64,000 nucleotides of DNA from Escherichia phage vB_EcoM-LTH02, in sequence record PP430346. One strand, 5' to 3'. The position numbers and the translations under genes were made by a program. Below, piece after piece: positions 8,543-41,305 of the stretch (position 1 is the first letter of the stretch; every line of letters begins with the position of its first letter). The notes under the pieces are model-generated. The model did no database searches and was not told where the DNA came from. It saw only the letters and a program-made list of their open reading frames with translations.

Positions 8543-9046
8543 CTATAATTGTAGGTTGCATTCTTTACTTACCTCTTCAAGTTTAACCTCAGAATCCTTA
8601 AGTCGTTTCTTATGAACTCTGAATCTCATTAGTGCTATGATGATACCAACTAAAGGGACAGAATACAAGTACCAAACATCATATACCTTTGCAGTAATCT
8701 GTGTAATGGTCAAGTCTTGAGCTATGGAACTGATTGCTGATACTGCCAGTAATGTTGCTAGGAAAAATGCCAGTACCATTACCGTACTTAAACAACCTCT
8801 GGCGTGGTGTTCATGCTTAATGCACTTATTCTTTTCGTCAACGACCCTGTTGTAGTCGTTTGTAAAGTCTCTGTAGAAAGCTTTCAAGTATTCTTTATTG
8901 TAGCCTTCAAAGCAACCTGTACCGTACCAATAATCACCACCAAAGTGTGCTATGATACCAGTATCTCCATTCGGTTTAGTTACTCTCAAAGATGTGTGAT
9001 GACGAGTATCTTGATAGTCTATTTTGTATCTTTCTTCGTAAATCAT
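8543..9046 (-). CDS. hypothetical membrane protein (two predicted TM helices)
   Basis: ORF track 8543..9076 begins at GTG; moved to ATG at 9046 (SD GAGGG upstream; abuts stop of upstream ORF); hydrophobic stretches LSTVMVLAFFLATLLAVSAI and YSVPLVGIIIALM. Confidence 0.5.
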   Translation of the reverse strand: MIYEERYKIDYQDTRHHTSLRVTKPNGDTGIIAHFGGDYWYGTGCFEGYNKEYLKAFYRDFTNDYNRVVDEKNKCIKHEHHARGCLSTVMVLAFFLATLLAVSAISSIAQDLTITQITAKVYDVWYLYSVPLVGIIIALMRFRVHKKRLKDSEVKLEEVSKECNLQL

Positions 9047-9276
9047 TTTCCAATCCCTCTCAATCGTTTGTTCCACTCAAGGTCAACAAGTCTTTGTAGG
9101 ACTTTCCCTCTAGGTGTTACACCTTTTAAATCTGCATCGTAGCAACGGTAAAAGTCACCTTCAGCGTGTTTACCATAGCATTTCCTGATATTCTGACTTC
9201 TACGATATTGTTCTAATAGAGACAGTCTGTAGTAATCTTCAACTGTAGTTAGTTTTTTCATTCTTTCACCACGCAT
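9043..9276 (-). CDS. hypothetical protein (77 aa)
   Basis: ORF track; ATG start. Confidence 0.45.
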   Translation of the reverse strand: MRGERMKKLTTVEDYYRLSLLEQYRRSQNIRKCYGKHAEGDFYRCYDADLKGVTPRGKVLQRLVDLEWNKRLRGIGK

Positions 9277-9344
9277 CTTCTTAAGAAACTAAAAAGGGAA
9301 CTACCTCTCGATAGCTCCCATCATAGTTAACATTGTATACTTGG

Positions 9345-9926
9345 TCAAGAGTATTTTTTAGGCAGTAATGCGCTACGCTTGTTGCTCTCTTCACTCAACA
9401 GTGCGATGAAGTCGTCACCTTTGCCTTTCCACGGGCTGAATGAAGGGATATGTTCACGAATAGCTTCAATCACTGTCTTCAGTGCTGTATTTTTCATCCA
9501 CCAGTCAGAATCTGCTGATGCTACAACATAGTACCCGCCATCATCAGTAAGGATTGGCTCTGAGATACATGGTGAAATAAGAGTGGTGATGATTGAGCCA
9601 TTGTTCATGTAGTATGTGCGTTTCATAACCTTTTCAAGAAGCTTGTGAAGGTCACCAAACAGTGTTACAAGCTCTTTATGGTCAATGTCTTTTTCGAGAT
9701 TTGCTCGATACTTCAAAAGTGCAGCATCAACTTCTCTGTCATTAAACTTGAAGTACTGGACTTCCTCAACAAGACAAACACTGATGTTGTTGACATTCAT
9801 AGTCAACTTGCAGACTTTTGCAGGAGAATTGATATTTGGTTGAAAAAGTGCAATACACCCTTCAATGTTTCCAAAATGTTGTACTAATGTCACTTGTGGA
9901 GTGATACTCTGTTGCTCTTCGGACAT
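9345..9926 (-). CDS. hypothetical protein (193 aa)
   Basis: ORF track; ATG start. Confidence 0.5.
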   Translation of the reverse strand: MSEEQQSITPQVTLVQHFGNIEGCIALFQPNINSPAKVCKLTMNVNNISVCLVEEVQYFKFNDREVDAALLKYRANLEKDIDHKELVTLFGDLHKLLEKVMKRTYYMNNGSIITTLISPCISEPILTDDGGYYVVASADSDWWMKNTALKTVIEAIREHIPSFSPWKGKGDDFIALLSEESNKRSALLPKKYS

Positions 9927-10270
9927 TACAGTTTCCTCATTAAATACTTTTTAAGTTGTGTGTTAGGTTTCTCAAAAACTTCTATAGAAGATATCTTGAC
10001 AGATTCACCACGCATACCTGTATGTTTGAAAATATAGTACTCCAACATACCTATATACTTTGCTGGTAAGTCATGCTTGACATACACCGTTACAGAATCT
10101 TCAAATTCAACAACCTTTGTACCATCTTTGTAGTTAAACTCTTTAGGATGGTCGTAGTTGTCGATATCATACATTAAAAAGAGTCTTTTCCGTTGCATAT
10201 CAAGCTTATTGGTTAAAGACTCTTTGATGTCTGAGAAGTTTTTGTACACTGTGACATGGAGCTTACTCAT
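9926..10270 (-). CDS. hypothetical protein (114 aa)
   Basis: ORF track; start overlaps the downstream gene. Confidence 0.5.
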   Translation of the reverse strand: MSKLHVTVYKNFSDIKESLTNKLDMQRKRLFLMYDIDNYDHPKEFNYKDGTKVVEFEDSVTVYVKHDLPAKYIGMLEYYIFKHTGMRGESVKISSIEVFEKPNTQLKKYLMRKL

Positions 10271-10556
10271 CGTTAAACTCTCTGACGAAGAAATAGTTGA
10301 CTTTATTATTGCCTACCATAAGGTCAAAGCAGGTATTCTCAAAAGGTTTGTTGTAGGCATCATATGAAGTGTACGTATCAGCTACTTGTTTAGTATTGAG
10401 CTTTTTACTTGATGGATTTAAGAGGCCACCATACAGTTTCTTTATAGCCTCTTCTACAACAGACCAGATAATTTCGTCAGTAATTTCTTCGTACAGGTCA
10501 AGTTCACGCTCTAGTGAGAAGTCACAAATAGGGAAAATAACCTGTACTTTACTCAT
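10263..10556 (-). CDS. hypothetical protein (97 aa)
   Basis: ORF track. Confidence 0.45.
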   Translation of the reverse strand: MSKVQVIFPICDFSLERELDLYEEITDEIIWSVVEEAIKKLYGGLLNPSSKKLNTKQVADTYTSYDAYNKPFENTCFDLMVGNNKVNYFFVREFNDE

Positions 10557-10951
10557 TAACGAATAACCTGTGAGACTTGAATTGCTTCAGTTACAGACAA
10601 ATCACCAACTTTCTCTTCTTTGATAAAAGTGAAGGTGAGTTCAACAGGCTCTTGCTCTTCTTGCTCAACCGGAATACCGTTAAGCTCATCAAAGATTGAT
10701 TGGGTAGTCCAGTCTTCCCCACCATCTGGATAGTGGATGGCATAAAGAGGGAACTCTAAATTATACCAAGCAAAAACAGGGCAACCATCTGCATCATCTC
10801 GGCATCTGTGGAGATATGTGTTTGTACCTTCAAAATGCAAATGGAGATTACCATTCTTCTCAAAGAGAAGAGCATCTTGCAGGTCTAGTTCCTCATTTTC
10901 GCTGTAACGGCTGACATCGACTTTAACGTGAATATGACTGTTATTATTCAT
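10556..10951 (-). CDS. hypothetical protein (131 aa)
   Basis: ORF track. Confidence 0.5.
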   Translation of the reverse strand: MNNNSHIHVKVDVSRYSENEELDLQDALLFEKNGNLHLHFEGTNTYLHRCRDDADGCPVFAWYNLEFPLYAIHYPDGGEDWTTQSIFDELNGIPVEQEEQEPVELTFTFIKEEKVGDLSVTEAIQVSQVIR

Positions 10952-11342
10952 AAAAACCTCTCTCTGCTTGTTCGATTTTTGCTTTTAGAACTTCACACCG
11001 TTCAATGTGATATCTGGCTTCATGTTCATGTGTCGCCAAAGTTCTTTCAAGAATGGTTTTATAGTAACCTGCAAGTTGCTCTCTTGTCAATGGGTTCTCT
11101 GAAATAATATCGAGACCACTTTCACCAAGAGTATTAAACTGCCCATGTTCATTTACATGATAAGTCTCAAACTTGAATAAACCGTTATTAGCAGATTCAA
11201 TAGGCGATAGTTCAACCAACTCAACAGTGAACATTGTGTGCACCCTATCACCAACTGTAACAATGTTACTTCCAATGATGCGTACAAGCGAACCATTACG
11301 AGTGTACTTAAAAGTCCCAAAGTCACTAGCCCAAAGCTTCAT
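10944..11342 (-). CDS. hypothetical protein (132 aa)
   Basis: ORF track; strong SD TAAGGAGAAAACT upstream of ATG. Confidence 0.55.
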   Translation of the reverse strand: MKLWASDFGTFKYTRNGSLVRIIGSNIVTVGDRVHTMFTVELVELSPIESANNGLFKFETYHVNEHGQFNTLGESGLDIISENPLTREQLAGYYKTILERTLATHEHEARYHIERCEVLKAKIEQAERGFYE

Positions 11343-11361
11343 AGTTTTCTCCTTAGAAAAT

Positions 11362-11383
11362 AAAAAAGGCTCCCGAAGGAGCC
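11362..11383 (-). terminator. intrinsic terminator downstream of the endolysin gene
   Basis: Hairpin GGCTCC-CGAA-GGAGCC followed on the minus strand by TTTTTT. Confidence 0.55.
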
Positions 11384-11393
11384 TATGAAGATA

Positions 11394-11858
11394 TTACTTT
11401 GGATATACACTGTCAAGATAAATGCCAGCTTCCATTCTACGTCTGTTTTTCAGGCCGTTTGAAGTGACCTTCTTACCTTTGACTGTGACCTTGTTCCACC
11501 ACTGCATAGCTTCTGCACAACCTACCTTGTTACCAGCATTGTGGCGCTTGATAAATGTAGAATCCTGCATAGCTGTGATACCGATGTTGTATGTTTCACT
11601 TACAAGTGCATCGAACTCGTTCTGAGAAGTTGGAACCTTGATAGCTTTATTCACTGCTGCAACGAACTTCTCAACATCTGCAAGAAGATACTGTTCAGCT
11701 TGTTCAGCAGTAATTTTCATACCCATCTTAACAGTTTTTCCGTCAATACGGATTGTACCATACCCGATTGTCGGGATTCCGGCAGAGTCTTCGTAAGCCT
11801 CTAACTTCAGACCTTCGAAGAACTTAATAGCTTCTAAACCTTTTCTTGAGAGTTGCAT
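11394..11858 (-). CDS. endolysin, T4-lysozyme-like muramidase (GH24)
   Basis: Catalytic-region signature EGLKLEAYEDSAGIPTIGYGT matches the Glu...Asp...TIGYG pattern of T4 e-type lysozymes; ATG overlaps stop of upstream gene (TAATG). Confidence 0.85.
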   Translation of the reverse strand: MQLSRKGLEAIKFFEGLKLEAYEDSAGIPTIGYGTIRIDGKTVKMGMKITAEQAEQYLLADVEKFVAAVNKAIKVPTSQNEFDALVSETYNIGITAMQDSTFIKRHNAGNKVGCAEAMQWWNKVTVKGKKVTSNGLKNRRRMEAGIYLDSVYPK

Positions 11859-13997: not shown

Positions 13998-14224
13998 TTT
14001 TCAGTTCTCCTGCGATTTATGATTTTGCTGCAATAGAGAAACGAAGTAAACTCACTGGAAGAAACCATTAAGTGTTGTTCACTAGATTGAGCCATTGCCC
14101 TGAAATACATTCCAGTCAAAGCATCGTAGTGACTATTCTTTCCAATTGAGGTTATATAGCCATGACTCTTTGCAGTTTTATATAAATCTATAATATCTGC
14201 GATTTCTAATTGGGAACTACACAT
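13991..14224 (-). CDS. hypothetical protein (77 aa)
   Basis: ORF track; ATG start. Confidence 0.4.
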   Translation of the reverse strand: MCSSQLEIADIIDLYKTAKSHGYITSIGKNSHYDALTGMYFRAMAQSSEQHLMVSSSEFTSFLYCSKIINRRRTEKC

Positions 14225-14466
14225 AGATAATCCTCTTGTCTTCTGTAATTTTGAAAGAACAGGTACAGACCAATTTCAGAGGATGAATAGTAGAGTAACT
14301 CTACCCTTTTTGATTCCTTACAGTGATTGGTATTTTTACCTTTCTTCGGGTTGTTTGATTTTCTCATTAAGTCTCCTTTGTAGAACAAGGCAGACCTACA
14401 GCTTTAAGTAAGATGGTACAGTAATCCATACAACAAGTCAAGAACTATTGCAAGTTAAAAAAGTTG

Positions 14467-14490
14467 TTGACAAAGTACTTGACAAGGTGT
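14467..14490 (+). promoter_or_regulatory. conserved tandem-TTGACA motif TTGACAAAGTACTTGACAAGGTGT (copy 1)
   Basis: 23 of 24 identical to 56431-56454; both copies sit at minus-to-plus strand-switch regions 120-170 nt upstream of the first plus gene; TATAAATA at 14496-14503. Confidence 0.5.
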
Positions 14491-14616
14491 AGGCTTATAA
14501 ATACTTAGAAGATAACTTAAAAGGTTCCTCTAAAAAGGCTATTTAAACAGATATCTTTCTGGATATCTATCTTTTATCTTAAAAGCCTTTTAAGAGGTCT
14601 TATAAGAGGCATACCA

Positions 14617-14988
14617 ATGAAAAACAGAACAAACAAAGGCCAGTTTAAAAAAGGCCAGTCTGGAAACCCATCTGGAAGACCAAAAGGCTCTCGTAACAAA
14701 AGCTCACTCGTAAAAGCTCAACTGACCATTGATAATTCTGCTGAGTTCGCTGCAAAGCTGTTTGAGGCGATTGTTACAAGGGACGCGGCTAAGCTTGCAG
14801 AGTTCGGGTTAAACACAGATGACGTAACCATCAAGAGTATGATTGAGGTCGGTAAAACTATCTTTACTCACTCAGCAGGTGAGATGAAAGCACTTGCAGC
14901 AGACACTAAGAAGGCTCCTGATAATGGTGGTCAACAACAGACAGATAACAAACCAACGTTCTCTGCTGTAGCGACTCTCAAAAAATAA
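14617..14988 (+). CDS. hypothetical protein with N-terminal basic motif GQSGNPSGRPKGSRNK
   Basis: ORF track; SD AAGAGG 8 nt upstream of ATG. Confidence 0.55.
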   Translation: MKNRTNKGQFKKGQSGNPSGRPKGSRNKSSLVKAQLTIDNSAEFAAKLFEAIVTRDAAKLAEFGLNTDDVTIKSMIEVGKTIFTHSAGEMKALAADTKKAPDNGGQQQTDNKPTFSAVATLKK

Positions 14989-15000
14989 TTTTAAAAGGTG

Positions 15001-15035
15001 TTGACAGACTCTACAAAGTTGCTCTAAAGTCTGTC
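15001..15035 (+). promoter_or_regulatory. promoter (TTGACA-17/18-TAAAGT) overlapped by an 8-bp palindrome
   Basis: TTGACA 15001-15006; inverted repeat GACAGACT (15003-15010) / AGTCTGTC (15028-15035) could be an operator. Confidence 0.45.
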
Positions 15036-15069
15036 ACATCAAACAACAAATGAGAGAAGAGAGTAAAAT

Positions 15070-16485
15070 ATGAGCGAGTTATTTAAACATGCGCACCTTC
15101 ATGCAGGTCGAACTGAAAATGGTGCTGTAAACCATACTTCATCAATGTCTGCTCTGGTAGACTTCTACAAAGCCGCTGGCTCAAGCCGTAGTAATGTAGA
15201 AATCTTACCAGACCTGTTCTACAAAGCTTTGCGTGAGGATGTTGATGTTGCAGTTCGTATTTTACTGCATATGCGAGATGTACGAGAAGGTATGGGTGAG
15301 CGTAAAGCTTTCCGAACTGTTTTACTTCAAGCGATTGAAGATAAGTTTTTAGAGCCTACACAGGTTCTTCGCATTATGGATAAGATTGTAGAACTTGGTC
15401 GTTTTGATGACTTCAAAATCTTCATAGGTACTCGTTTTGAGACAGATGCCTTCAAACATTTAGAAGCAGCATTACTAGACCCTGCAACAGCAGGTTTAGC
15501 AGCTAAGTGGTTACCACGAGTAAAACCACGCCACAAACAGTTTGTAAAACGTTTCTGTAAGTTTGCAAACTTAAGCGAGAAAGAGTACCGCACACTGTTA
15601 TCTGCACTGTCTGATACGGTTGAGCAAAAAATCTCTGCTAATGAGTTTGGTAAGATTGACTACAGCAAGATTCCTTCACTCGCTGCTGCACGTTACCAAA
15701 AGCTCTTTAACCGTAAAGATGGGGAACGTTACAAAGCTTATATCGAGTCACTCTCAAAAGGTGAGGCTAAGATTAACGCTGGTGCTGTTTACCCATACGA
15801 TGTGATTAAATCTATTAAGTATGGTAATGCAGATGTTGCTAATGAGCAGTGGAAAGCACTTCCAAACTGGATGGCAGAAGGTGAAAACATCTTGTGTATG
15901 ACTGATGTTTCAAGCTCAATGTCTTGGGTGAATCTTGGCTCAATTACTGCCCTTGATATTGGTGTATCACTTGCCTTATATGTAGCAGAACGCAATACAG
16001 GTTGCTTTAAAGATGAGTTAATGGTCTATTCAACAAACCCTCATTTCATTGAACTGAGTGGTGATTTACGAAACCGTCATCGTCAGGTAATGCGTCATGT
16101 TGAATATGGTTCAACTAACTTACAAGCAGCTTTTGACCGTATTCTTGAGATAGGTAAGAGAAACAACTTGACTCAGAAAGATATGCCAAGTAAGCTTATC
16201 ATCTTCTCCGATATGGAGTTCAATCAGGTTGATGGAGCTAACGGTCGTACAAACTTTGAAGCAATTCAGAGTAAGTACAAAAAAGCTGGATATGAGATGC
16301 CACAACTAGTATTCTGGTACTTAGCAAACCGTAATGGTACTTGCGAAGTGTCTGTTAAGGATAATGGTGTAGCAATGGTATCAGGGTTCTCTCCAGCCAC
16401 TTTAAAAGCTCTGCTTGGTGGTGAGAAGTTTGACCCAATCAGCGTAATGCTCAAAGCAGTAATGATTGACCGTTACATCTGGTAA
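15070..16485 (+). CDS. vWA-domain protein with MIDAS motif, possibly Ro60/TROVE-like
   Basis: 471 aa; MIDAS D-x-S-x-S in ILCMTDVSSSMS followed by a vWA-like C-terminal region; N-terminal helical region with TENGAV...SALVDFY; gene lies immediately upstream of the tRNA array. The vWA call is from sequence; the Ro60/TROVE assignment is from my memory of the family and its position, not a search. Confidence 0.55.
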   Translation: MSELFKHAHLHAGRTENGAVNHTSSMSALVDFYKAAGSSRSNVEILPDLFYKALREDVDVAVRILLHMRDVREGMGERKAFRTVLLQAIEDKFLEPTQVLRIMDKIVELGRFDDFKIFIGTRFETDAFKHLEAALLDPATAGLAAKWLPRVKPRHKQFVKRFCKFANLSEKEYRTLLSALSDTVEQKISANEFGKIDYSKIPSLAAARYQKLFNRKDGERYKAYIESLSKGEAKINAGAVYPYDVIKSIKYGNADVANEQWKALPNWMAEGENILCMTDVSSSMSWVNLGSITALDIGVSLALYVAERNTGCFKDELMVYSTNPHFIELSGDLRNRHRQVMRHVEYGSTNLQAAFDRILEIGKRNNLTQKDMPSKLIIFSDMEFNQVDGANGRTNFEAIQSKYKKAGYEMPQLVFWYLANRNGTCEVSVKDNGVAMVSGFSPATLKALLGGEKFDPISVMLKAVMIDRYIW

Positions 16486-16495
16486 AAAGTTTTAA

Positions 16496-16527
16496 AAAGG
16501 GTATTGACAATGTGTTTGATACCCTTT
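16496..16527 (+). promoter_or_regulatory. hairpin (AAAGGGTAT/ATACCCTTT) after the vWA gene with an embedded TTGACA
   Basis: 9-bp inverted repeat enclosing TTGACA at 16504-16509. Confidence 0.4.
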
Positions 16528-16594
16528 AATATGTTCTACATAGAAACGAAATGAGAGCTTTTCTAAGATACTGAAAAATATTTTAAAAAAGTTC

Positions 16595-16623
16595 TTGACA
16601 ACCACTAAAAAATAATGTTAAAG
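16595..16623 (+). promoter_or_regulatory. candidate promoter of the tRNA operon (TTGACA-17-TTAAAG)
   Basis: TTGACA 16595-16600, 17-nt spacer, weak -10 TTAAAG; first tRNA begins at 16651; flanked by inverted repeat AACCACT/AGTGGTT. Confidence 0.45.
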
Positions 16624-16650
16624 TGGTTACATAGAGTTTGAAAAGTTTAT

Positions 16651-16727
16651 CTCTGTTTAGCTCAGCTTGGTAGAGCGTTCCGTTTGGGGCGGTAAGGCCG
16701 GAGGTTCAAGTCCTCCAACAGAGACCA
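16651..16727 (+). tRNA. tRNA-Pro (anticodon TGG)
   Basis: Cloverleaf by eye: acceptor CTCTGTT/AACAGAG, D GCTC..GAGC, anticodon loop TTTGGGG, T-arm GGAGG-TTCAAGT-CCTCC, CCA encoded. Confidence 0.75.
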
Positions 16728-16734
16728 AATTAAT

Positions 16735-16812
16735 GTTCCAGTAGACAAAATGGTAAAGTCACCACTCTTTCAAAGTGGATATTTGAGGGTTCAAATCCCT
16801 TCTGGAACGCCA
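16735..16812 (+). tRNA. tRNA-Glu (anticodon TTC)
   Basis: Acceptor GTTCCAG/CTGGAAC, anticodon stem CCACT/AGTGG with loop CTTTCAA, T-loop TTCAAAT, CCA encoded. Confidence 0.75.
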
Positions 16813-16819
16813 GTTTTGA

Positions 16820-16892
16820 CAGAAGACCAATTGCAGCAAACTTAATCTTATTCATCTGACACGAAATCGGACAAAGAAGAGATTTGGTCTGG
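16820..16892 (+). ncRNA. structured element of the AGACC/GGTCT stem family (a)
   Basis: 5' CAGAAGACCAA-TTGCAGCAA ... TTGGTCTGG 3'; terminal 7-bp stem AGACCAA/TTGGTCT; lies between tRNA-Glu and tRNA-Met. Confidence 0.45.
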
Positions 16893-16903
16893 TCATTAAG
16901 AAT

Positions 16904-16980
16904 TGCGGGTATAGAGAAAGGGCGTCTCACATGTCTCATTAGCATGGTATCGGCAGGTTCGACTCCTGCACCCGCCTCCA
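16904..16980 (+). tRNA. tRNA-Met-like (anticodon CAT), irregular
   Basis: Anticodon stem CATGT/GCATG with loop CTCATTA, D-stem GAGA/TCTC, T-arm GCAGG-TTCGACT-CCTGC, 3' ACCCGCC-T-CCA; the acceptor pairs only with a T1/C72 mismatch or an extra nucleotide before the D-stem. Confidence 0.5.
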
Positions 16981-16986
16981 ATTTTG

Positions 16987-17046
16987 CAGAAGACCGTATT
17001 CAGCAACAAACTACTTTTTGCGGATAAAAGAAAAAACACGGTCTGG
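16987..17046 (+). ncRNA. structured element of the AGACC/GGTCT stem family (b)
   Basis: CAGAAGACCG-TATTCAGCAA ... CGGTCTGG; stem uses CG where elements a and c use CAA/TTG (compensatory change). Confidence 0.45.
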
Positions 17047-17057
17047 CAATGTATTAA

Positions 17058-17134
17058 GGTTAGGAAGCACATAAGGTATGTGCGGTCGCCTGTTAAGCGA
17101 ATGGCACAGGGTTCGAATCCCTGACTAACCGCCA
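17058..17134 (+). tRNA. tRNA-Asn (anticodon GTT)
   Basis: Acceptor GGTTAGG/ACTAACC, D GCAC..GTGC, loop CTGTTAA, T-arm CAGGG-TTCGAAT-CCCTG, G-CCA. Confidence 0.75.
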
Positions 17135-17143
17135 AATTTAAAT

Positions 17144-17231
17144 GTGTCGTTATCCCGTAGATGGTAGCGGTGGGGACTGTAAATCCCTTGTCATTGAGAC
17201 TCGGTAGGTTCGACTCCTACACGGCACACCA
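17144..17231 (+). tRNA. tRNA-Tyr (anticodon GTA), class II
   Basis: Acceptor GTGTCGT/ACGGCAC, loop CTGTAAA, long variable arm, T-arm GTAGG-TTCGACT-CCTAC, A-CCA. Confidence 0.7.
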
Positions 17232-17237
17232 AATAAA

Positions 17238-17315
17238 GGTTATGTAGTTTAATCTGGTTAAAATACTCCCCTGTCACGGGAGATGATGAGGGTTCAAATC
17301 CCTTCGTAACCGCCA
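17238..17315 (+). tRNA. tRNA-Asp (anticodon GTC)
   Basis: Acceptor GGTTATG/CGTAACC, anticodon stem CTCCC/GGGAG with loop CTGTCAC, T-loop TTCAAAT, G-CCA. Confidence 0.75.
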
Positions 17316-17402
17316 AATTATAATAAGTATTTCAAGATGATGTTTTGAGAGGGCTATTTAGCCCCTCCCTTAAAGAGTTCTTACGAGTATTCTTTAAAGG
17401 AG

Positions 17403-17479
17403 CAGAAGACCAAATTCAGCAAGTACGTATGATATTTTCAAGCCAATTTAATTTTGAAAAAATTTAAAACTTGGTCTGG
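17403..17479 (+). ncRNA. structured element of the AGACC/GGTCT stem family (c)
   Basis: CAGAAGACCAA-ATTCAGCAAG ... TTGGTCTGG; internal hairpin TTTTCAA...TTGAAAA. Confidence 0.45.
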
Positions 17480-17492
17480 CTCAACAAATTTA

Positions 17493-17624
17493 CAGAAGAC
17501 CGTTTACAGCAAAACTTAAACAATCTATTTCTCCGGTAAAGAAAAGGCGAAGGTTCGATTCCTTCACTCGGCAGATGTCGAGTTGGTGTAATGGTAGCAC
17601 TTAAGATGATAAACAACGGTCTGG
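17493..17624 (+). ncRNA. YrlA-like (Y-RNA-like) candidate: terminal stem plus circularly permuted tRNA-like module
   Basis: Terminal stem AGAAGACCGTT (17495-17504) / AACGGTCT (17615-17622); inside, in this order: hairpin TTTCT-CCGGTAA-AGAAA (17528-17544), canonical T-arm GAAGG-TTCGATT-CCTTC (17549-17565), closed acceptor-like stem ACTCGGC-AGAT-GTCGAGT (17566-17583), D-arm GTGT-AATGGTA-GCAC (17586-17600). Confidence 0.55.
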
Positions 17625-17631
17625 TAATTAT

Positions 17632-17763
17632 CTTTGTAGATAAGTTATTAAGCTTACCTGTGAGTATGCGACCACAAAGGGTGAAAGGGTAAATTCTAGA
17701 TTTAAACCCAACAAGGCACATCGCTACAGACCTTAAGCAAGTCTGGGTAGCTTATCTACAAAG
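17632..17763 (+). ncRNA. structured region closed by a 13-bp long-range inverted repeat
   Basis: CTTTGTAGATAAG (17632-17644) pairs with CTTATCTACAAAG (17751-17763); encloses hairpin CAGACC-TTAAGCAA-GTCTGG (17726-17745). Confidence 0.4.
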
Positions 17764-17773
17764 ATAATTTAAT

Positions 17774-17849
17774 GGAAGTGTAGCAGAATGGTGATGCGGC
17801 AGACTTTTAATCTGACAGGCGATGGGTTCGAATCCCTCCACTTCTACCA
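17774..17849 (+). tRNA. tRNA-Lys (anticodon TTT)
   Basis: Acceptor GGAAGTG/CACTTCT, loop CTTTTAA, T-loop TTCGAAT, A-CCA; T-stem weak (3 bp). Confidence 0.65.
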
Positions 17850-17853
17850 ATAT

Positions 17854-17930
17854 GGTTCAGTCGCAGATAAGGTAATGCAAGGGTCTCATAAACCCTATGA
17901 ATGTGGGTTCGATTCCCATCTGAACCTCCA
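17854..17930 (+). tRNA. tRNA-Met or Ile2 (anticodon CAT)
   Basis: Acceptor GGTTCAG/CTGAACC, anticodon stem AGGGT/ACCCT with loop CTCATAA, T-arm GTGGG-TTCGATT-CCCAT, T-CCA. Confidence 0.75.
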
Positions 17931-17931
17931 A

Positions 17932-18007
17932 GCTGGTATAGTTAAGAAGGTTATAACACTCCCCTGATAAGGGAACATCGGTGGTTCGATTCCACCTACC
18001 AGTACCA
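17932..18007 (+). tRNA. tRNA-Ile (anticodon GAT)
   Basis: Acceptor GCTGGTA/TACCAGT, D GTTA..TAAC, loop CTGATAA, T-arm GGTGG-TTCGATT-CCACC, A-CCA. Confidence 0.75.
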
Positions 18008-18022
18008 ATTTCAATAAAGTTG

Positions 18023-18051
18023 TTGACATTGAGATGTGACCACTTTATAGT
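18023..18051 (+). promoter_or_regulatory. internal promoter in the tRNA region (TTGACA-17-TATAGT)
   Basis: TTGACA 18023-18028, 17-nt spacer, TATAGT 18046-18051; about 200 nt non-tRNA leader follows before tRNA-Arg. Confidence 0.6.
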
Positions 18052-18254
18052 AACCTTAGTTTTCGTTGCGTAGCGTCTATTTTGCAAATTTAAAATAAAT
18101 GCAAACGACAATGTTTTTCTGGCAGTAGCTTGATAGGCTAAACACCAGTGAGGTCTTCCAATCCCTCATCAAAGAATTTGGCGTACTCGCCCACGGTATG
18201 ATTAATAAGGTGGGCATCTTTAAGGGCTTTCTAAGAGAGTCTTTAAAGATTAAT

Positions 18255-18331
18255 GCACCCTTAGTTCAATTGGATAGAGCAACGGTCTTCTAAATCGTTA
18301 GTTACAGGTTCGAATCCTGTAGGGTGTGCCA
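18255..18331 (+). tRNA. tRNA-Arg (anticodon TCT)
   Basis: Acceptor GCACCCT/AGGGTGT, D GTTC..GAGC, loop CTTCTAA, T-arm ACAGG-TTCGAAT-CCTGT, G-CCA. Confidence 0.75.
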
Positions 18332-18473
18332 AATAGTTAGCAGATTGCTTAGACGACCTTATCGGGTCTCCGTGTAAGGAGGTGGTCTGTATCTCATGTT
18401 TTCCAGAACATGTAAATAATCTGAGAAGGGGCTTTACAGTGTTGCGAAAATACGGTAAGCTTCGAATTATAGT

Positions 18474-18556
18474 GTGGGACGATGTTAAGACTCTAAGGCA
18501 TGAGCAACGGCCTCCAAAACCGTTTCAAAGGGGTTCAACTCCTCCGTCCCATGCCA
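18474..18556 (+). tRNA. tRNA-like, possibly Trp (anticodon CCA), irregular
   Basis: Acceptor GTGGGAC/GTCCCAT, T-arm AGGGG-TTCAACT-CCTCC, G-CCA; anticodon arm ACGGC-CTCCAAA-ACCGT; 9 nt instead of 2 between acceptor and D-stem, total 83 nt. Confidence 0.4.
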
Positions 18557-18569
18557 AAGTCTTATTAGG

Positions 18570-18659
18570 GGTAGGTAGCGGCTAATGGTAGCCAAACTGT
18601 CTTGAAAACAGTTGCCACTGTAGAGATACGGTGAGGGTTCGACTCCTTTACTTACCGCC
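18570..18659 (+). tRNA. tRNA-Ser (anticodon TGA), class II
   Basis: Acceptor GGTAGGT/ACTTACC, anticodon stem ACTGT/ACAGT with loop CTTGAAA, long variable arm, T-arm GAGGG-TTCGACT-CCTTT; 3' end reads G-CC-T, so CCA is not fully encoded. Confidence 0.7.
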
Positions 18660-18814
18660 TAATAAGATTTAAAGCCAAGCTTCATTCGGATGTTGCTTTG
18701 GTATCCCTCGTGTATTGTCGTACACGCACAGTAAAGCACCTAGTAGGTGTCACGGAGAAGAGATAATATCAAGCTCTCCAAAGGTTCTAGTCACCGGATT
18801 AAACAAGACTATGC

Positions 18815-18836
18815 AAAGACCAAATTAGGTCTTTTT
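18815..18836 (+). terminator. terminator-like hairpin using the AGACC/GGTCT stem
   Basis: AAAGACC-AAATTA-GGTCTTT followed by TT. Confidence 0.4.
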
Positions 18837-18915
18837 AGAGGGCTTCTAAGGTTATTACAGCTTGTTGTGGAACCTTGTTGCTTAGGTTCTTAGAAGTTCT
18901 CTAAAAAGATTTAAT

Positions 18916-18992
18916 GCACCTATAGCCCAATTGGTAGAGGCAGCAGACTTAGAATCTGCTCAGTGTGAGTTCGAATCTCTCTAGGTGTACCA
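18916..18992 (+). tRNA. tRNA with anticodon TAG (Leu by anticodon; short variable arm)
   Basis: Acceptor GCACCTA/TAGGTGT, anticodon stem GCAGA/TCTGC with loop CTTAGAA, T-loop TTCGAAT, A-CCA; 77 nt. Confidence 0.65.
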
Positions 18993-18999
18993 AATTAAT

Positions 19000-19075
19000 G
19001 CAGGTGTAGCAAAATGGTTATGCGGCTGACTCTTAATCAGTAAGACGATGGGTTCAATTCCCTCCACCTGTACCA
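19000..19075 (+). tRNA. tRNA-Lys (anticodon CTT)
   Basis: Acceptor GCAGGTG/CACCTGT, loop CTCTTAA, T-loop TTCAATT, A-CCA; paralog of tRNA-Lys(TTT). Confidence 0.65.
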
Positions 19076-19081
19076 AACATT

Positions 19082-19157
19082 GGGGATGTAGTTTACATGG
19101 TTAAAACATAAGTTTTGCAAACTTAAGTACAGGGTTCAATTCCCTGCTTCTCCACCA
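19082..19157 (+). tRNA. tRNA-Ala (anticodon TGC)
   Basis: D GTTT..AAAC, anticodon stem TAAGT/ACTTA with loop TTTGCAA, T-arm CAGGG-TTCAATT-CCCTG, 3' CTTCTCC-A-CCA. Confidence 0.7.
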
Positions 19158-19163
19158 ATTAGT

Positions 19164-19238
19164 GCATCCATAGTTTAAACGGGAAAATTACAGTCTTCCA
19201 AACTGAGGTTGAGGGTTCGATTCCCTCTGGATGCTCCA
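19164..19238 (+). tRNA. tRNA-Gly (anticodon TCC)
   Basis: Acceptor GCATCCA/TGGATGC, loop CTTCCAA, T-arm GAGGG-TTCGATT-CCCTC, T-CCA. Confidence 0.75.
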
Positions 19239-19244
19239 AACAAT

Positions 19245-19321
19245 GCTGCTTTCGTATAATTGGCTATTACACATCCCTTGTAAGGATGGAAATGCAGGTT
19301 CGAGTCCTGTGAGCAGCACCA
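19245..19321 (+). tRNA. tRNA-Thr (anticodon TGT)
   Basis: Acceptor GCTGCTT/GAGCAGC, anticodon stem CATCC/GGATG with loop CTTGTAA, T-loop TTCGAGT, A-CCA. Confidence 0.75.
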
Positions 19322-19325
19322 ATTC

Positions 19326-19411
19326 AGAGGTCAAGTGAAAGACCGCTGGTGTCAACTGAAGACCGTAACAAATTCCACGGAGTTGAGTTAGCGGCACAAC
19401 TTCAGACCTCT
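19326..19411 (+). ncRNA. multi-stem structured element between tRNA-Thr and the next tRNA
   Basis: Nested stems AGAGGTC (19326-19332) / GACCTCT (19405-19411); CCGCT (19343-19347) / AGCGG (19390-19394); TCAACT (19352-19357) / AGTTGA (19381-19386); apical loop carries GAAGACCGTAACAAATTCC, related to the 5' arms of elements a-d. Confidence 0.45.
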
Positions 19412-19416
19412 TCCAT

Positions 19417-19491
19417 ACTCGCTTAGTTTATATGGTAAAACACCACCCTTACAAGATGAAGAAAAAGGTTCAAGTCCTTTAGTGAGTACCA
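19417..19491 (+). tRNA. tRNA-like, anticodon probably TAC (Val); weak anticodon stem
   Basis: Acceptor ACTCGCT/AGTGAGT, D GTTT..AAAC, T-arm AAAGG-TTCAAGT-CCTTT, A-CCA; anticodon region CCACC-CTTACAA-GATGA forms only 3 of 5 pairs. Confidence 0.45.
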
Positions 19492-19492
19492 T

Positions 19493-19570
19493 GTTCCAGT
19501 ATCCCAATTGGCAGAGGATGCAAGCTCAAACCTTGTACTAGTGACGGTTCGAATCCGTCTTGGAACACCA
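19493..19570 (+). tRNA. tRNA with anticodon CAA (Leu by anticodon; short variable arm)
   Basis: Acceptor GTTCCAG/TTGGAAC, anticodon stem GCAAG/CTTGT with loop CTCAAAC, T-arm GACGG-TTCGAAT-CCGTC, A-CCA. Confidence 0.65.
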
Positions 19571-19575
19571 ATTTT

Positions 19576-19651
19576 GCAGGATTAGTTCAAATGGATAGAG
19601 CAACAGTCTACGAAGCTGTTAATAGGGGTTCGAATCCCTTATCCTGCGCCA
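19576..19651 (+). tRNA. tRNA-Arg (anticodon ACG)
   Basis: Acceptor GCAGGAT/ATCCTGC, D GTTC..GAGC, loop CTACGAA, T-loop TTCGAAT, G-CCA. Confidence 0.75.
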
Positions 19652-19670
19652 ATTTAAAGAGGCTATTTAG

Positions 19671-20228
19671 ATGAGATATTTGAAGTATGCTTCATGGATT
19701 TTCTTAGCTTTGTTAGAGCCATTTGCAGCAATCTTAGCAGTTATCTTAGCACCTTTCGTAGTTCCATTTTACAGTGAGAAGAAAGGACACTTACCTTTCG
19801 GATTTAGATGGATGGAAACTTACGACAACCCGATTGATGGTGATGAAGGTCACGTCAAACGATGGGCTAAGATTAGAAAGATTGGTAAGCTTGGTATCTA
19901 TATGCAGAGAGTCGGTTGGCTCTGGAGAAACAAAGCTTATAACTTCTCTTATCATGTGTTAGGAAGAGATGTGAAAGATGTTACTAAGTGGAAAGGTAAT
20001 ATTAATGTAAGTTCTAACCCTGAAGATAATCAGACAGGTTATCTCCTAATGTGGAACAGTAATGCTTGGGGATTATTCGCTTTTATCCCATCAATTAAAG
20101 TCTTTGGTAAACAATTCTACTGGAGAATTTATGTTGGATGGAAACTTAAAAGTGTTGTCCCAAAAGAAAGAGCATTCTCAAGGGAAAGAGTTATGTTGGC
20201 ATTCTTTATTCATCCACTAAGAAAGTAA
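19671..20228 (+). CDS. hypothetical Trp-rich membrane-anchored protein embedded in the tRNA array (185 aa)
   Basis: ATG at 19671 with SD in AAGAGGCTATTTAG; N-terminal hydrophobic helix WIFLALLEPFAAILAVILAPFVV. Confidence 0.55.
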   Translation: MRYLKYASWIFLALLEPFAAILAVILAPFVVPFYSEKKGHLPFGFRWMETYDNPIDGDEGHVKRWAKIRKIGKLGIYMQRVGWLWRNKAYNFSYHVLGRDVKDVTKWKGNINVSSNPEDNQTGYLLMWNSNAWGLFAFIPSIKVFGKQFYWRIYVGWKLKSVVPKERAFSRERVMLAFFIHPLRK

Positions 20229-20236
20229 AGATTTAA

Positions 20237-20312
20237 AGGGGATTAGTTTACAAGGTTAAAACCTCGGTCTTTGAAATCGAAGAAGTTGGTTCAATTCCAA
20301 CATCCCCCGCCA
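20237..20312 (+). tRNA. tRNA-Gln (anticodon TTG)
   Basis: Acceptor AGGGGAT/ATCCCCC (A1/C72 mismatch), D GTTT..AAAC, anticodon stem TCGGT/ATCGA with loop CTTTGAA, T-arm GTTGG-TTCAATT-CCAAC, G-CCA. Confidence 0.7.
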
Positions 20313-20314
20313 AT

Positions 20315-20393
20315 GCTCCATTACTCCAATTGGCAGAGAGGCCAGACTTAAAATCTGTGTTATGTATCGGTTCGAATCCGATATGGAGTACCA
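20315..20393 (+). tRNA. tRNA with anticodon TAA (Leu by anticodon; short variable arm)
   Basis: Acceptor GCTCCAT/ATGGAGT, loop CTTAAAA, T-arm ATCGG-TTCGAAT-CCGAT, A-CCA. Confidence 0.6.
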
Positions 20394-20398
20394 AATTT

Positions 20399-20474
20399 AG
20401 CGGTATAGCATAACTGGCAATGCAGCAGTCTCTGAAGCTGTCTTATTAAGGTTCAAATCCTTATGCCGCTGCCA
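20399..20474 (+). tRNA. tRNA-Gln (anticodon CTG)
   Basis: Acceptor AGCGGTA/TGCCGCT, D GCAT..ATGC, loop CTCTGAA, T-arm TAAGG-TTCAAAT-CCTTA, G-CCA. Confidence 0.7.
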
Positions 20475-20505
20475 CTTCTAAGGGTTCTTACGAGAGTCCT
20501 TAAAT

Positions 20506-20581
20506 GTGGCCTTATCATAAAAGGTAATGACCCATGCTGTGAACATGGTCTATACGGGTTCAAATCCCGTAGGTCACCCCA
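20506..20581 (+). tRNA. tRNA-His (anticodon GTG)
   Basis: Acceptor GTGGCCT/AGGTCAC, D TCAT..ATGA, anticodon stem CCATG/CATGG with loop CTGTGAA, T-arm ACGGG-TTCAAAT-CCCGT, discriminator C then CCA. Confidence 0.75.
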
Positions 20582-20586
20582 ATTTA

Positions 20587-20663
20587 TAGTCCAAGTAGCT
20601 TATATGGTTAAAGCGCGTGTCTGAAAAACATGAGAAGAGGGTTCAAATCCCACTGGACTACCA
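20587..20663 (+). tRNA. tRNA-Phe-like (anticodon GAA), irregular acceptor/D junction
   Basis: D GCTT..AAGC, anticodon stem CGTGT/ACATG with loop CTGAAAA, T-loop TTCAAAT; acceptor TAGTCCA/TGGACTA pairs perfectly but leaves a nonstandard junction and 3' end. Confidence 0.55.
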
Positions 20664-20679
20664 ATTTCAAAGGTGCTTA

Positions 20680-21414
20680 ATGAAAGAGATGACAGAACAA
20701 GGTAAGGAGATTTTTAATCTCTTAAAAACCGGTAGAGGGTTTTCTAATCCCCTTATTACTGGTGCAGCAGTTCTCGGTGGAACCGTAGCTGCCTCTACAT
20801 CACTTGTAAGCTCTATTAGCTCTGTAACAGACCCTACAATAAAAGATAAGCTTATTGCTGCTGGACTTACAACAGTTCTGCTTAATAGCTTTACAACGAG
20901 TCTGACAAGCACTACATCAACCACTAAGACATTGACAGATTACGGTCAAAAATCAATTGATGAGTTTTCATCACGTATGCAGGTAGCAAAAGGATATTCC
21001 AATGTTATGGGTGCAGCAGGAGAGCAAGTTGGTTGTACACCATTTAGTGGTATTATGGGTGTTGCTACAGAGTATGGTCAAAAAGCTATTGACACAATTA
21101 ACAGCACACTAGACAGTGTTAACGGTGTGTTAAGTGACTTACAGGATGCTATTGATGAAGGTCTTGATACCATTTCTGATTTAGCTAACCAAGCTGTTAG
21201 CAAGATTAATGAAGGTATCTCAAAGATTACAGCTTATGCAGATGAAGTTGTGCAGATGATTGAAGAAGAAGCTGCCCTTATTGCAGAGTACCTTAAAACG
21301 AATATCAATGGGTTCTTAGCAGGTATCTTACCAGACTGGTTTGATGATGCTTGTAAAACTGGTGTAATTGATACTATTGCAACACCAGAAATGAAGAACG
21401 CATTACAGAAATAA
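20680..21414 (+). CDS. hypothetical Ser/Thr-rich protein (244 aa)
   Basis: ORF track 20617..21414 starts at GTG inside tRNA-Phe; moved to ATG at 20680; stop lies 1 nt before tRNA-Ser(GCT). Confidence 0.55.
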   Translation: MKEMTEQGKEIFNLLKTGRGFSNPLITGAAVLGGTVAASTSLVSSISSVTDPTIKDKLIAAGLTTVLLNSFTTSLTSTTSTTKTLTDYGQKSIDEFSSRMQVAKGYSNVMGAAGEQVGCTPFSGIMGVATEYGQKAIDTINSTLDSVNGVLSDLQDAIDEGLDTISDLANQAVSKINEGISKITAYADEVVQMIEEEAALIAEYLKTNINGFLAGILPDWFDDACKTGVIDTIATPEMKNALQK

Positions 21415-21415
21415 T

Positions 21416-21508
21416 GGAAGATTAACCCTAAAAGGTAAGGGAGCAGTTTGCTAAACTGCCAGTAGCTGAGAAATCGGTGTACCAGTTCAAGTCTGGTATC
21501 TTCCTCCA
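21416..21508 (+). tRNA. tRNA-Ser (anticodon GCT), class II
   Basis: Acceptor GGAAGAT/ATCTTCC, anticodon stem GCAGT/ACTGC with loop TTGCTAA, long variable arm, T-arm ACCAG-TTCAAGT-CTGGT, T-CCA. Confidence 0.7.
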
Positions 21509-21512
21509 ATTT

Positions 21513-21588
21513 GAATCCGTGACAGAAATGGCTATGTGCCTGTCTGCAAAACAGGTTTATAAGGGTTCGAGTCCCTTCGGATTCTCCA
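21513..21588 (+). tRNA. tRNA-Cys (anticodon GCA)
   Basis: Acceptor GAATCCG/CGGATTC, anticodon stem CCTGT/ACAGG with loop CTGCAAA, T-arm AAGGG-TTCGAGT-CCCTT, T-CCA. Confidence 0.75.
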
Positions 21589-21625
21589 AGTTATTTTACT
21601 CTCTCTCAATTAAAATAATAATAAT

Positions 21626-21686
21626 GCCCTGCTATAAGTATTCTTCCTTTCGCTACCGAAGAGTATTTTTAGACAGGGCTTTTTTA
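21626..21686 (+). terminator. intrinsic terminator after the tRNA array
   Basis: GCCCTG ... CAGGGC stem followed by TTTTTT; a second hairpin GACGGT-CTCTGT-ACCGTC plus TTTTTT lies at about 21752-21775. Confidence 0.55.
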
Positions 21687-21810
21687 CAGAGTTATACTTT
21701 ATAAGAAGACTTATACAGTATGTCTCTGACGTACATTGTGGTTTCTCCTTGACGGTCTCTGTACCGTCTTTTTTAAGGGGAAACATGGTTAATTATTTGG
21801 AGAAAACATA

Positions 21811-22011
21811 ATGAGCGAGACCGTTTACAAAGAACTTTATGAAGCTAATAAGAAGCTGGAATTTATGCAGAATACTATTATGGCAATTGCAGACAGATTA
21901 TCTGTAGCAACAGGTATTGATATTAAAGAAGCATCTATGGATGCACTTCTTGATGCTGTTGATGCAAAGTTCGAAGTTAAGAAAGAAGAGACTGCTACAG
22001 ACTCTGAATAA
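21811..22011 (+). CDS. hypothetical protein (66 aa) upstream of large terminase
   Basis: ORF track; SD GGAGAAAAC; position is compatible with, but does not establish, a small terminase subunit. Confidence 0.45.
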   Translation: MSETVYKELYEANKKLEFMQNTIMAIADRLSVATGIDIKEASMDALLDAVDAKFEVKKEETATDSE

Positions 22012-22032
22012 TTCTATTTGCGGAGGTGCTTA

Positions 22033-33289: not shown

Positions 33290-41305
<8,016 letters not shown>

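Follow-up and report, generated by a model that had tools for sequence, protein, structure and literature searches.

A predicted Ro60-fold protein of Escherichia phage vB_EcoM-LTH02 and the CAGCAA-stem RNA family that accompanies its gene

We analysed a stretch of 64,000 nucleotides from Escherichia phage vB_EcoM-LTH02 (PP430346), referred to as the window. It holds a gene whose 471-aa product is predicted to fold like Ro60, followed by a tRNA array in which four paralogous RNA elements, E1 to E4, are embedded. Taken together, our data make it likely, if far from certain, that protein and elements constitute a divergent ribonucleoprotein of the Ro60/Y-RNA type, in which the Ro60-type protein would work with its adjacent cognate RNAs. 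The Ro60-like interpretation of the protein is right but not new: the same has been reported of an ortholog with 97% identity and has entered phage annotation, and it therefore adds little alone. The added value lies in the CAGCAA-stem RNA family, a concrete and directly testable candidate ligand which accompanied the gene in most of the loci examined. An earlier sequence-only reading had proposed the gene as a Ro60/TROVE-like partner of a Y-RNA-like element in the tRNA array, an interpretation that was supported. The features concerned are the following (R1 is a covariance model described further below).

15070..16485, + strand: gene for the Ro60-fold protein (471 aa) of the DUF2828/DUF7788 family (PHROG 850), ortholog of Bas63 gp130
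15070..15870, + strand: alpha-helical N-terminal region (residues 1 to about 267), which by prediction corresponds to the HEAT-repeat (TROVE) ring of Ro60 (predicted model)
15892..16434, + strand: vWA domain with a complete metal ion-dependent adhesion site (MIDAS; D279, S281, S283, T349, D381), from DUF7788, invariant residues and hhalign
16651..21588, + strand: tRNA array of 26 genes with E1-E4 embedded (ARAGORN, Rfam)
16817..16895, + strand: E1, CAGCAA-stem element between tRNA-Glu and tRNA-Met (fold; R1 41.5 bits, E 2.9e-7)
16984..17049, + strand: E2, CAGCAA-stem element between tRNA-Met and tRNA-Asn (fold z -2.5; R1 39.2 bits, E 9.9e-7)
17400..17482, + strand: E3, CAGCAA-stem element (fold; R1 40.5 bits, E 4.8e-7)
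17490..17627, + strand: E4, CAGCAA-stem element enclosing a YrlA-type permuted tRNA-like module at 17549-17600 (fold, structural scanner)

The open reading frame had been placed exactly, at 15070..16485 on the + strand with an ATG start and a product of 471 aa. The gene is real, since its product has more than 2,840 homologs, mainly on big phage contigs, and matched DUF7788 on residues 275-455 (2.5e-43, 148.4 bits against a cut-off of 27.1) and DUF2828 (2.8e-29, 102.7 bits against a cut-off of 29) in Pfam as well as, from end to end, phrog_850 with the label 'RNA-binding protein' (8.4e-183). These scores, above the curated thresholds, place it in the DUF2828/DUF7788 family (PF11443 + PF25043; PHROG 850). 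The hidden Markov model search against vWA-containing families, one of the checks suggested beforehand, was thus positive for DUF7788 and DUF2828, with VWA_2 as a weak sub-threshold match (4.6e-4). A search of NCBIfam with the 471-aa protein gave no meaningful match, and nothing was found when the single sequence was searched against the sequences of the PDB. By tblastn, homologs were detected in 709 cultured-phage records, with hosts including Escherichia, Salmonella, Vibrio, Listeria, Staphylococcus, Campylobacter, Enterococcus, Bacillus, Aeromonas and Mycobacterium; GenBank names the gene 'RNA-binding protein', 'vWFA protein' or 'DUF2828 family protein'. The MIDAS signature ILCMTDVSSSMS, on which the sequence-only reading was built, is indeed present at residues 273-284, and the five MIDAS residues D279, S281, S283, T349 and D381 did not vary in an alignment of 45 family members with identities down to 40%. 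In the N-terminal half, many residues that are basic or aromatic were likewise invariant.

In the predicted structure, residues 1 to about 265 form a helical N-terminal part, and an alpha/beta vWA part comes next. Both halves had been anticipated, the first from the stretch TENGAV...SALVDFY at residues 15-33, the second as a vWA-like C-terminal half, for which the DUF7788 match and the hhalign alignment to the vWA domain of Ro60 also speak. In Foldseek, the full-length predicted model matched Ro60-type structures with template modelling (TM) scores of 0.55-0.65, and 395 residues aligned to Ro60. With this extent of alignment and these full-length scores, the helical N-terminal part is needed for the match. 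The comparison with Ro60 proposed by the sequence-only reading hence revealed the predicted order typical for Ro60/Rsr, a closed ring of alpha-helical HEAT-like repeats and then a vWA domain. For comparison at the level of sequence, the Xenopus Ro60 sequence was verified against the PDB and 20 Rsr homologs were aligned to obtain a profile; the canonical Ro60/Rsr homologs collected all carry PF05731 and PF25045. With hhalign, the DUF2828 family aligned to this Ro60/Rsr profile with 90.5% probability and an E value of 1.3e-6, over residues 232-449 only, that is, over the last ring helix and the vWA domain. All five MIDAS residues were in register, aligning with the DVSGSM, GGTDC and TDNET motifs of Ro60, and the last ring helix INAGAVYPYDV matched LKRGRIHPxDAL of Ro60. 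The MIDAS-bearing vWA domain is thus homologous to that of Ro60. When the family profile was run against PDB sequences, Ro60 chains were the sole near-matches, at the MIDAS motif and with non-significant E values of 0.39-0.54. The protein, as modelled, has a Ro60 fold and a homologous C-terminal half, and is not a TROVE member by any sequence test run. Of the earlier Ro60/TROVE-like assignment, the Ro60-like architecture stood, on the predicted fold and the vWA homology, whereas TROVE sequence membership did not, either in Pfam or in hhalign.

The closest described relative is gp130 (bas63_0130) of Bas63, the Felixounavirus Escherichia phage JohannRWettstein (MZ501086). The two proteins have 458 of 471 residues identical (97% over 471 aa) and the same flanking genes, namely a DUF5681 gene upstream and tRNA-Pro and tRNA-Glu downstream, so that sequence and synteny identify the 471-aa protein as the ortholog of gp130. 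A preprint of 2024 on PhageMaP reported gp130 as structurally similar to Ro60 and located directly upstream of tRNA genes, and suggested some of the Bas63 'tRNAs' as possible Y RNAs (PMC11482910). In the same work, deletion of gp130 sensitised Bas63 to the defence protein Ppl, complementation was shown, and gp130 alone, on a plasmid or in the T7 genome, restored growth of T7 on Ppl hosts (PMC11482910). The Bas63 work did not identify RNA elements, nor a family-wide linkage of RNA and gene (PMC11482910). Precedents exist further afield as well: mycobacteriophage homologs with 31-34% identity are already annotated as 'Ro-like RNA binding protein', a mycobacteriophage YrlA near a phage Ro gene was already known (PMC4201824), and phiRo60 of phage phiLo binds the phage-encoded Y-like RNAs Yrl1 and Yrl2, which bear a CGAA box (PMC12135203). 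Because of the gp130 preprint, these annotations and these phage Ro60/Y-RNA precedents, we do not consider our interpretation of the protein as new.

The gene was expected to lie just before the tRNA array, and 26 tRNA genes on its strand do begin 166 nt after its stop codon, with tRNA-Pro at 16651. Within the array, where a Y-RNA-like element had been supposed, there are four elements, E1 to E4, all of them on the strand of the gene and 332-1,142 nt downstream of it, which recalls Ro60/Rsr loci where a Y RNA gene lies nearby on the same strand. They are of a variant type, with a CAGCAA box, and E4 holds a YrlA-type module. The folds of E1-E4 have common ends, made up of a 4-bp outer helix, an AGA/G internal loop, a 7-8-bp inner helix of the form AGACCNN/NNGGUCU and, on the 5' side after this helix, NUW-CAGCAA. 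The outer helix differs from copy to copy and is complementary each time (UGAC/GUCA, UUGC/GCAA, GAGC/GCUC, UUAC/GUAA), and that of E2 covaries among relatives between UUUGC/GCAA and UUUAC/GUAA. We conclude that E1-E4 are four paralogous RNA elements. They are kept at the same positions in 16 Felixounavirus-like loci and go without annotation in GenBank. The phage of the window is itself a Felix O1-like myovirus (Felixounavirus), its 8 kb around the gene being 96-98% identical to dozens of relatives among Escherichia, Salmonella and Shigella phages; positions 17380-17780, across E3 and E4, are 100% identical to Enterobacteria phage UAB_Phi87.

Three minor observations concern these elements. 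In Bas63, two small coding sequences on the opposite strand, bas63_0137 and bas63_0138 (37749-38023 in our locus L001; L numbers are our handles for the loci fetched), overlie E3 and E4, at about 17400-17720 of the window, and are probably spurious open reading frame calls over structured RNA genes. Read as codons, the invariant CAGCAA box gives glutamine twice, and both tRNA-Gln(UUG) and tRNA-Gln(CUG) are present in the phage; pairing with an anticodon or recognition by the protein alone may lie behind this. Finally, AGCAA recurs within many loops of members of the CAGCAA-stem family.

The linkage of RNA and gene was followed over 80 loci encoding relatives of the protein, 65 of them distant (39-46% protein identity). 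A simple pattern, in which the first strand of a 7-bp stem is followed after 3 nt by CAGCAA and after a further 20-200 nt by its complement, occurred within 500 nt of the gene and on its strand in 35 of the 65 distant loci; the opposite strand had no such case. With the distance extended to 1 kb, the numbers were 39 and 1. Features that the pattern did not require were conserved as well, namely AGR at the start of the stem, a U two bases before CAGCAA and a G after the 3' strand. The covariance model R1, built from 38 minimal elements, matched in the 64-kb window only the three elements E1-E3, with E values of about 3e-7 to 1e-6, and E4 in its 5' part. In 1.17 Mb of loci it gave 84 matches at E<=1, every one on the strand of the gene. 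At E<=0.01, 47 of the 65 distant loci had a match, and 37 of the 62 matches (60%) fell within 1 kb of the gene, a zone which makes up 11.8% of the sequence; most of the others were located in tRNA/tmRNA clusters 6-9 kb away. Four held-out loci (53-63% identity) were all positive, with 10 R1 matches at E<=0.02 interleaved with the tRNAs downstream of the gene, and they also carry permuted tRNA-like modules. The linkage extended to six very divergent GenBank lineages (26-37% identity), from Mycobacterium, Listeria, Campylobacter, Staphylococcus, Enterococcus and Synechococcus phages: the stem-plus-CAGCAA pattern stood in tandem directly beside the gene and on its strand in all six, and R1 matched four of them at E<=0.01 and the Synechococcus phage more weakly (E 0.083). 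Conversely, R1 had no match at E<=1 in the 50 kb around the T5 tRNA genes, in the 50 kb around those of T4 or in the canonical-Ro locus of mycobacteriophage ET08, stretches that encode no homolog of the protein. Co-occurrence of gene and RNA elements in relatives, a further check proposed from the sequence, was therefore observed in 16 Felixounavirus-like loci, 47 of 65 distant loci, 4 of 4 held-out loci and, by pattern, 6 of 6 divergent lineages. The CAGCAA-stem RNA family was not found in Rfam 15 or described in the searchable literature.

Proximity to tRNAs did not hold as a general rule. A tRNA or tmRNA lay within 10 kb, always on the strand of the gene, in just 28 of 60 distant loci, and in 17 distant loci the RNA was present with no tRNA within 10 kb. 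Since the presence of the RNA follows that of the gene rather than that of tRNAs, we dropped the notion of a 'tRNA array partner' for the family at large. As separate observations, a tmRNA sharing the strand of the gene was seen 5-8 kb downstream of it in L032, L046, L048, L050, L051, L057, L075 and L076, and tRNA-Met together with CAGCAA-stem elements stood beside the tmRNA in L032, L050, L051, L075 and L076. In Listeria phage LMTA-34 (L088), the gene lies between a tRNA array and a cluster for an HD phosphohydrolase, an RtcB-type 'tRNA splicing ligase' and an RNA ligase; within the array, a drum RNA passed its gathering score (50.2 bits) and a ROOL RNA narrowly failed to reach its own (88.5 bits), the two RNAs and the downstream repair genes occupying positions 941-1039, 3428-3979 and 7075-11455. 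By analogy, this neighbourhood echoes the bacterial rsr-rtcBA arrangement and points to RNA-end metabolism.

The stem of the RNA family is supported by covariation. In an alignment of 69 elements fitted to R1, 99.2% of stem positions paired, versus 62% in shuffles and 26-48% when the partner strand was slid, and 7 of 7 stem pairs showed compensatory changes. Pair counts on another alignment, A3, were left unused because A3 had been selected for perfect stems. A structural scanner for the permuted tRNA-like module recovered both the ET08 YrlA used as control and E4. Close to the gene it detected modules in L019, L074, L078, L060, L034 and L065, and all non-artefactual matches were on the strand of the gene. 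A terminal stem followed by (A)CAGCAA flanked most of these modules, L065 excepted, as judged from the folding of the flanks. In total, YrlA-type modules were observed inside CAGCAA-stem elements in the window, in L019, L074, L078, L060, L034, L086 and L091, and in mycobacteriophage MiniLon. Matches in L017, L018 and L047 were discarded as they span two adjacent ordinary tRNAs, and those in L067 and at L074:12112 were judged dubious.

E4 provides the link to YrlA. Its interior shows, in this order, a T-arm (GAAGG-UUCGAUU-CCUUC), a closed 7-bp stem (ACUCGGC-AGAU-GUCGAGU) and a D-arm (GUGU-AAUGGUA-GCAC), which is the permuted tRNA order of the RF02553 consensus. Among orthologs, the scanner found three unrelated and yet complementary sequences for the closed acceptor-like stem. 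E4 starts 1,005 nt past the stop codon on the + strand, and thus lies, like YrlA, within 4 kb of a Ro gene on the same strand. The Rfam model RF02553 together with the ET08 locus served as positive control; it found the ET08 YrlA directly upstream of the canonical Ro gene with 37.4 bits. In MiniLon, the 'Ro-like' (DUF2828-type) gene has three CAGCAA-stem elements behind its stop codon. A tRNA-like module enclosed by the middle one (L087 6523-6651) was recognised by RF02553 with 37.7 bits (E 1.2e-4), on a par with the accepted ET08 YrlA. An Enterococcus element (L091 22-149) has a D-arm identical to that of E4. On account of the MiniLon match and this D-arm, the CAGCAA-stem RNAs are best seen as a variant branch of the bacterial and phage Y RNAs, the minimal forms being like YrlB and the tRNA-mimic forms like YrlA, with CAGCAA sitting where GNCGAA(N)G or CGAA sits.

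Bacterial Ro60 (Rsr) with its RNAs YrlA/YrlB or Yrn1 (the RYPER complex; Chen et al. 2014, PMC4201824) has in common with our system the ring plus vWA/MIDAS fold, here as predicted, and small RNA genes within a few kb on the same strand. Bacterial YrlA and E4 both carry a permuted tRNA-like module inside a long terminal stem, and elements of the E1-E3 type lack the module, like YrlB. However, the window protein combines DUF2828 and DUF7788 where bacterial Rsr combines TROVE and PF25045, its ring is without detectable sequence similarity, and E1-E4 have a CAGCAA box and are embedded in a tRNA array, whereas bacterial Y RNAs have a GNCGAA(N)G box. Unlike the window protein, phiRo60 of the Thermus phage phiLo (Hu et al. 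2025, PMC12135203; PDB 9l5y, 9kop) is a recognisable TROVE protein, and just 15-17% of residues are identical between the two; its Yrl1 and Yrl2 carry CGAA and lie upstream of the gene, and phiRo60 binds the host polynucleotide phosphorylase (PNPase) in vitro (PMC12135203). In MiniLon (Lumosvirus type), gp57 is a full-length homolog with 34% identity, annotated as Ro-like and followed by the three elements mentioned above. The ET08-type proteins (cluster C Bxz1/ET08), by contrast, are canonical TROVE proteins in a locus without CAGCAA element. Small stable RNAs between tRNA genes, some of them tRNA-like, are also present in T4 (species 1/2) and T5 (RNA1-3, RNAI-IV, RNAX). As the CAGCAA-stem model found nothing in the tRNA regions of T4 and T5, these are a different kind of array-embedded RNA; the DUF2828 gene is missing from both phages too.

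A small RNA of the E1-E4 type is probably the binding partner of the protein. The protein would form an alpha-helical repeat ring closed by the vWA domain with its intact MIDAS metal-ion site. E1-E4 would be transcribed with the first kb of the tRNA array and then cut out, and the NUW-CAGCAA box after the terminal helix would serve as protein-binding site in place of the GNCGAA/CGAA box of Y RNAs, E4 adding a YrlA-type tRNA-mimic module. By analogy with Ro60 and Y RNA, the RNA helix and the CAGCAA box might bind the outer face of the ring and gate the cavity or tether other factors, and the central cavity might take up single-stranded 3' ends. Ppl is a single-stranded DNA 3'-5' exonuclease that is released by depletion of nucleoside triphosphates and senses 3'-OH ends (2026 review, PMC12904381), and the ends it senses are made by phage homing endonucleases (PMC12904381), in which Felixounaviruses are rich. 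Our leading guess is that Ppl would be defeated by capping or sequestering 3' ends, or by sequestering a nuclease. Such a role is speculative; it is attractive because of the 3'-OH ends sensed by Ppl and the abundance of homing endonucleases in these phages.

Several results weigh against a ribonucleoprotein of the Ro60/Y-RNA type. On the protein side, the search against TROVE, which the sequence-only reading had named as its weak link, was negative, Pfam TROVE (PF05731) having no match to the 471-aa protein at E<=1, and the N-terminal 235 residues compared by hhalign with the TROVE part reached an E value of 0.33 and a probability of 0.2%. Since this comparison was not significant, we claim no sequence homology for the ring, whose assignment relies on the predicted structure. 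On the RNA side, 18 of the 65 distant loci gave no R1 match at E<=0.01 within the flanks covered, and R1 had no match in the Campylobacter locus, where the pattern alone found an element. The training set of R1 was chosen by complementarity, which makes the covariation counts partly circular; the strand bias, the position bias and the held-out tests are free of this circularity. No Rfam Y RNA or YrlA was found at E<=10 in 14000-22500 or 16480-17780, so RF02553 misses E4, of which R1 in turn matched just the 5' part (E 0.3). This negative is informative because the same model finds the ET08 YrlA. A GNCGAA(N)G box has no place at the expected 5' position of E4, where UAC-AGCAA stands instead; GGCGAAG at 17546-17552 overlaps the T-stem of E4 and is in another structural position than the YrlA box. 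On the functional side, and as the chief argument against a need for RNA, gp130 alone protects T7, so the phage RNAs are dispensable for the anti-Ppl phenotype, barring substitution by host RNAs or a bypass by overexpression, and Ppl acts on DNA, no obvious target for an RNA quality-control particle.

These functional points lead to the alternative we take most seriously, unlikely as it seems to us: the protein would inhibit Ppl on its own, by threading and capping the 3'-OH ends of single-stranded DNA or by binding Ppl via the MIDAS face, and the CAGCAA elements would act in cis in processing, stability or autoregulation. T7 plaquing on Ppl hosts is restored by gp130 from a plasmid or the T7 genome without any Felixounavirus RNA. 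Ppl is described as an exonuclease on single-stranded DNA that is triggered by the 3'-OH ends left by homing endonucleases (PMC12904381), and the cavity of Ro60 binds single-stranded 3' ends (PMC4201824). Elements placed directly after a stop or before a start codon, as they often are, would suit elements of untranslated regions. Against this, the elements come in tandem sets of 2-5, they also occur 6-9 kb from the gene inside tRNA/tmRNA clusters, and some carry a full YrlA-type tRNA mimic recognised by Rfam; stable trans-acting RNAs therefore fit better than signals in untranslated regions. Action of the protein alone would moreover be compatible with a ribonucleoprotein, since Y RNAs act as regulators of Ro60, some activities of which do not depend on them (PMC4201824).

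It is improbable, in our view, that the CAGCAA-stem elements are autonomous RNAs, such as nuclease decoys or by-products of tRNA processing, which simply share the neighbourhood of the gene without binding its product. Stable RNAs of unassigned role are a classic feature of phage tRNA clusters (T4 species 1/2; T5 RNA1-3 and RNAI-IV). However, 17 distant loci have the RNA beside the gene with no tRNA within 10 kb, the tRNA regions of T4 and T5 are without such an element, and the linkage persists down to 26-37% protein identity and across host phyla, always on the same strand, in a pattern as known for Ro60 and YrlA (PMC4201824). A generic vWA/MIDAS protein with a helical N-terminus only superficially like Ro60, and hence a misleading AlphaFold model, would agree with the unmatched Pfam TROVE, the non-significant N-terminal profile comparison and a structure that is predicted and not solved. 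Next to the full-length structural match and the MIDAS residues in register with those of Ro60, we give this explanation hardly any credence.

Beyond the window, we lean slightly towards the view that DUF2828-type Ro60-fold proteins and CAGCAA-stem RNAs constitute a widespread, undescribed family of phage ribonucleoproteins, and that the particle is a general device for counter-defence or handling of nucleic-acid ends, with Ppl resistance as one read-out. The family would range over phages of Proteobacteria, Firmicutes, Actinobacteria, Cyanobacteria and Campylobacter. Its RNA-recognition box would be NUW-CAGCAA, unlike the GNCGAA/GGUCCGA of known Y RNAs, and its RNAs would be minimal (about 55-65 nt) or of the tRNA-mimic (YrlA) type, often hidden in tRNA arrays or mis-annotated as small open reading frames. 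Among the phage groups covered are well-studied ones such as Felix O1-like, KVP40-like, Listeria P100-like, Staphylococcus, Enterococcus and Campylobacter phages and cluster L mycobacteriophages. If the RNAs bind the protein, Ro60/Y-RNA biology would acquire a second branch, divergent in sequence and using a different recognition code, many unannotated gaps of tRNA arrays and some spurious small open reading frames would be explained, and the gp130-type defeat of the Ppl exonuclease could be approached with defined components. The design of therapeutic phages is touched as well, because gp130 is a transferable counter-defence gene.

Some further features were observed around the gene. The DUF5681 gene (123 aa, 14617-14988, + strand) is the upstream neighbour on the same strand, a place it also keeps in L083-L085 (53-63% protein identity); it may be functionally linked to the Ro60-like gene. 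A consensus scan yielded the following promoter-like sites, which are suggestive only, the total in the region being no higher than in shuffles.

15001..15030, + strand: promoter-like site, TTGACA, 18 nt, TAAAGT, 40 nt before the start codon (10/12 consensus matches)
16504-16532 and 16595-16624, + strand: two promoter-like sites between the gene and the first tRNA (10/12 consensus matches each)

A sigma-70-like promoter match (11/12) was also present at 18023-18051 within the tRNA array. The array contains weak tmRNA-like Rfam matches at 17949-18254 and 18476-18550 (+ strand; E 0.003-0.005) and, in the same stretches, a tRNA-like piece missed by ARAGORN (tRNA-Sec model, E 0.6). We treated the weak tmRNA, tRNA-Sec and microRNA-like Rfam matches in array gaps as noise or tRNA-likeness.

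Other gaps of the array are structured. Directly after E4, at 17626-17769 on the + strand, an unannotated near-perfect terminal stem of about 24 bp surrounds about 100 nt, with a minimum free energy (MFE) of -48.3 kcal/mol and z -5.7, none of 200 shuffles being as stable; it could be a further structured RNA or the remnant of a mobile element. In the gap between tRNA-Thr and tRNA-Val, a stable hairpin at 19326-19411 (+ strand; MFE -30.7 kcal/mol, z -3.5) contains CUGAAGACC, like the 5' strand of E1-E4 with one mismatch. A second short inverted-repeat family, CUUUAAGRGnUUCUnAnGAGAGUCnUUAAAG, recurs in array gaps on the + strand at about 17369-17399, 18218-18248, 18830-18909 and 20475-20505, and its copies may be processing or terminator-like hairpins.

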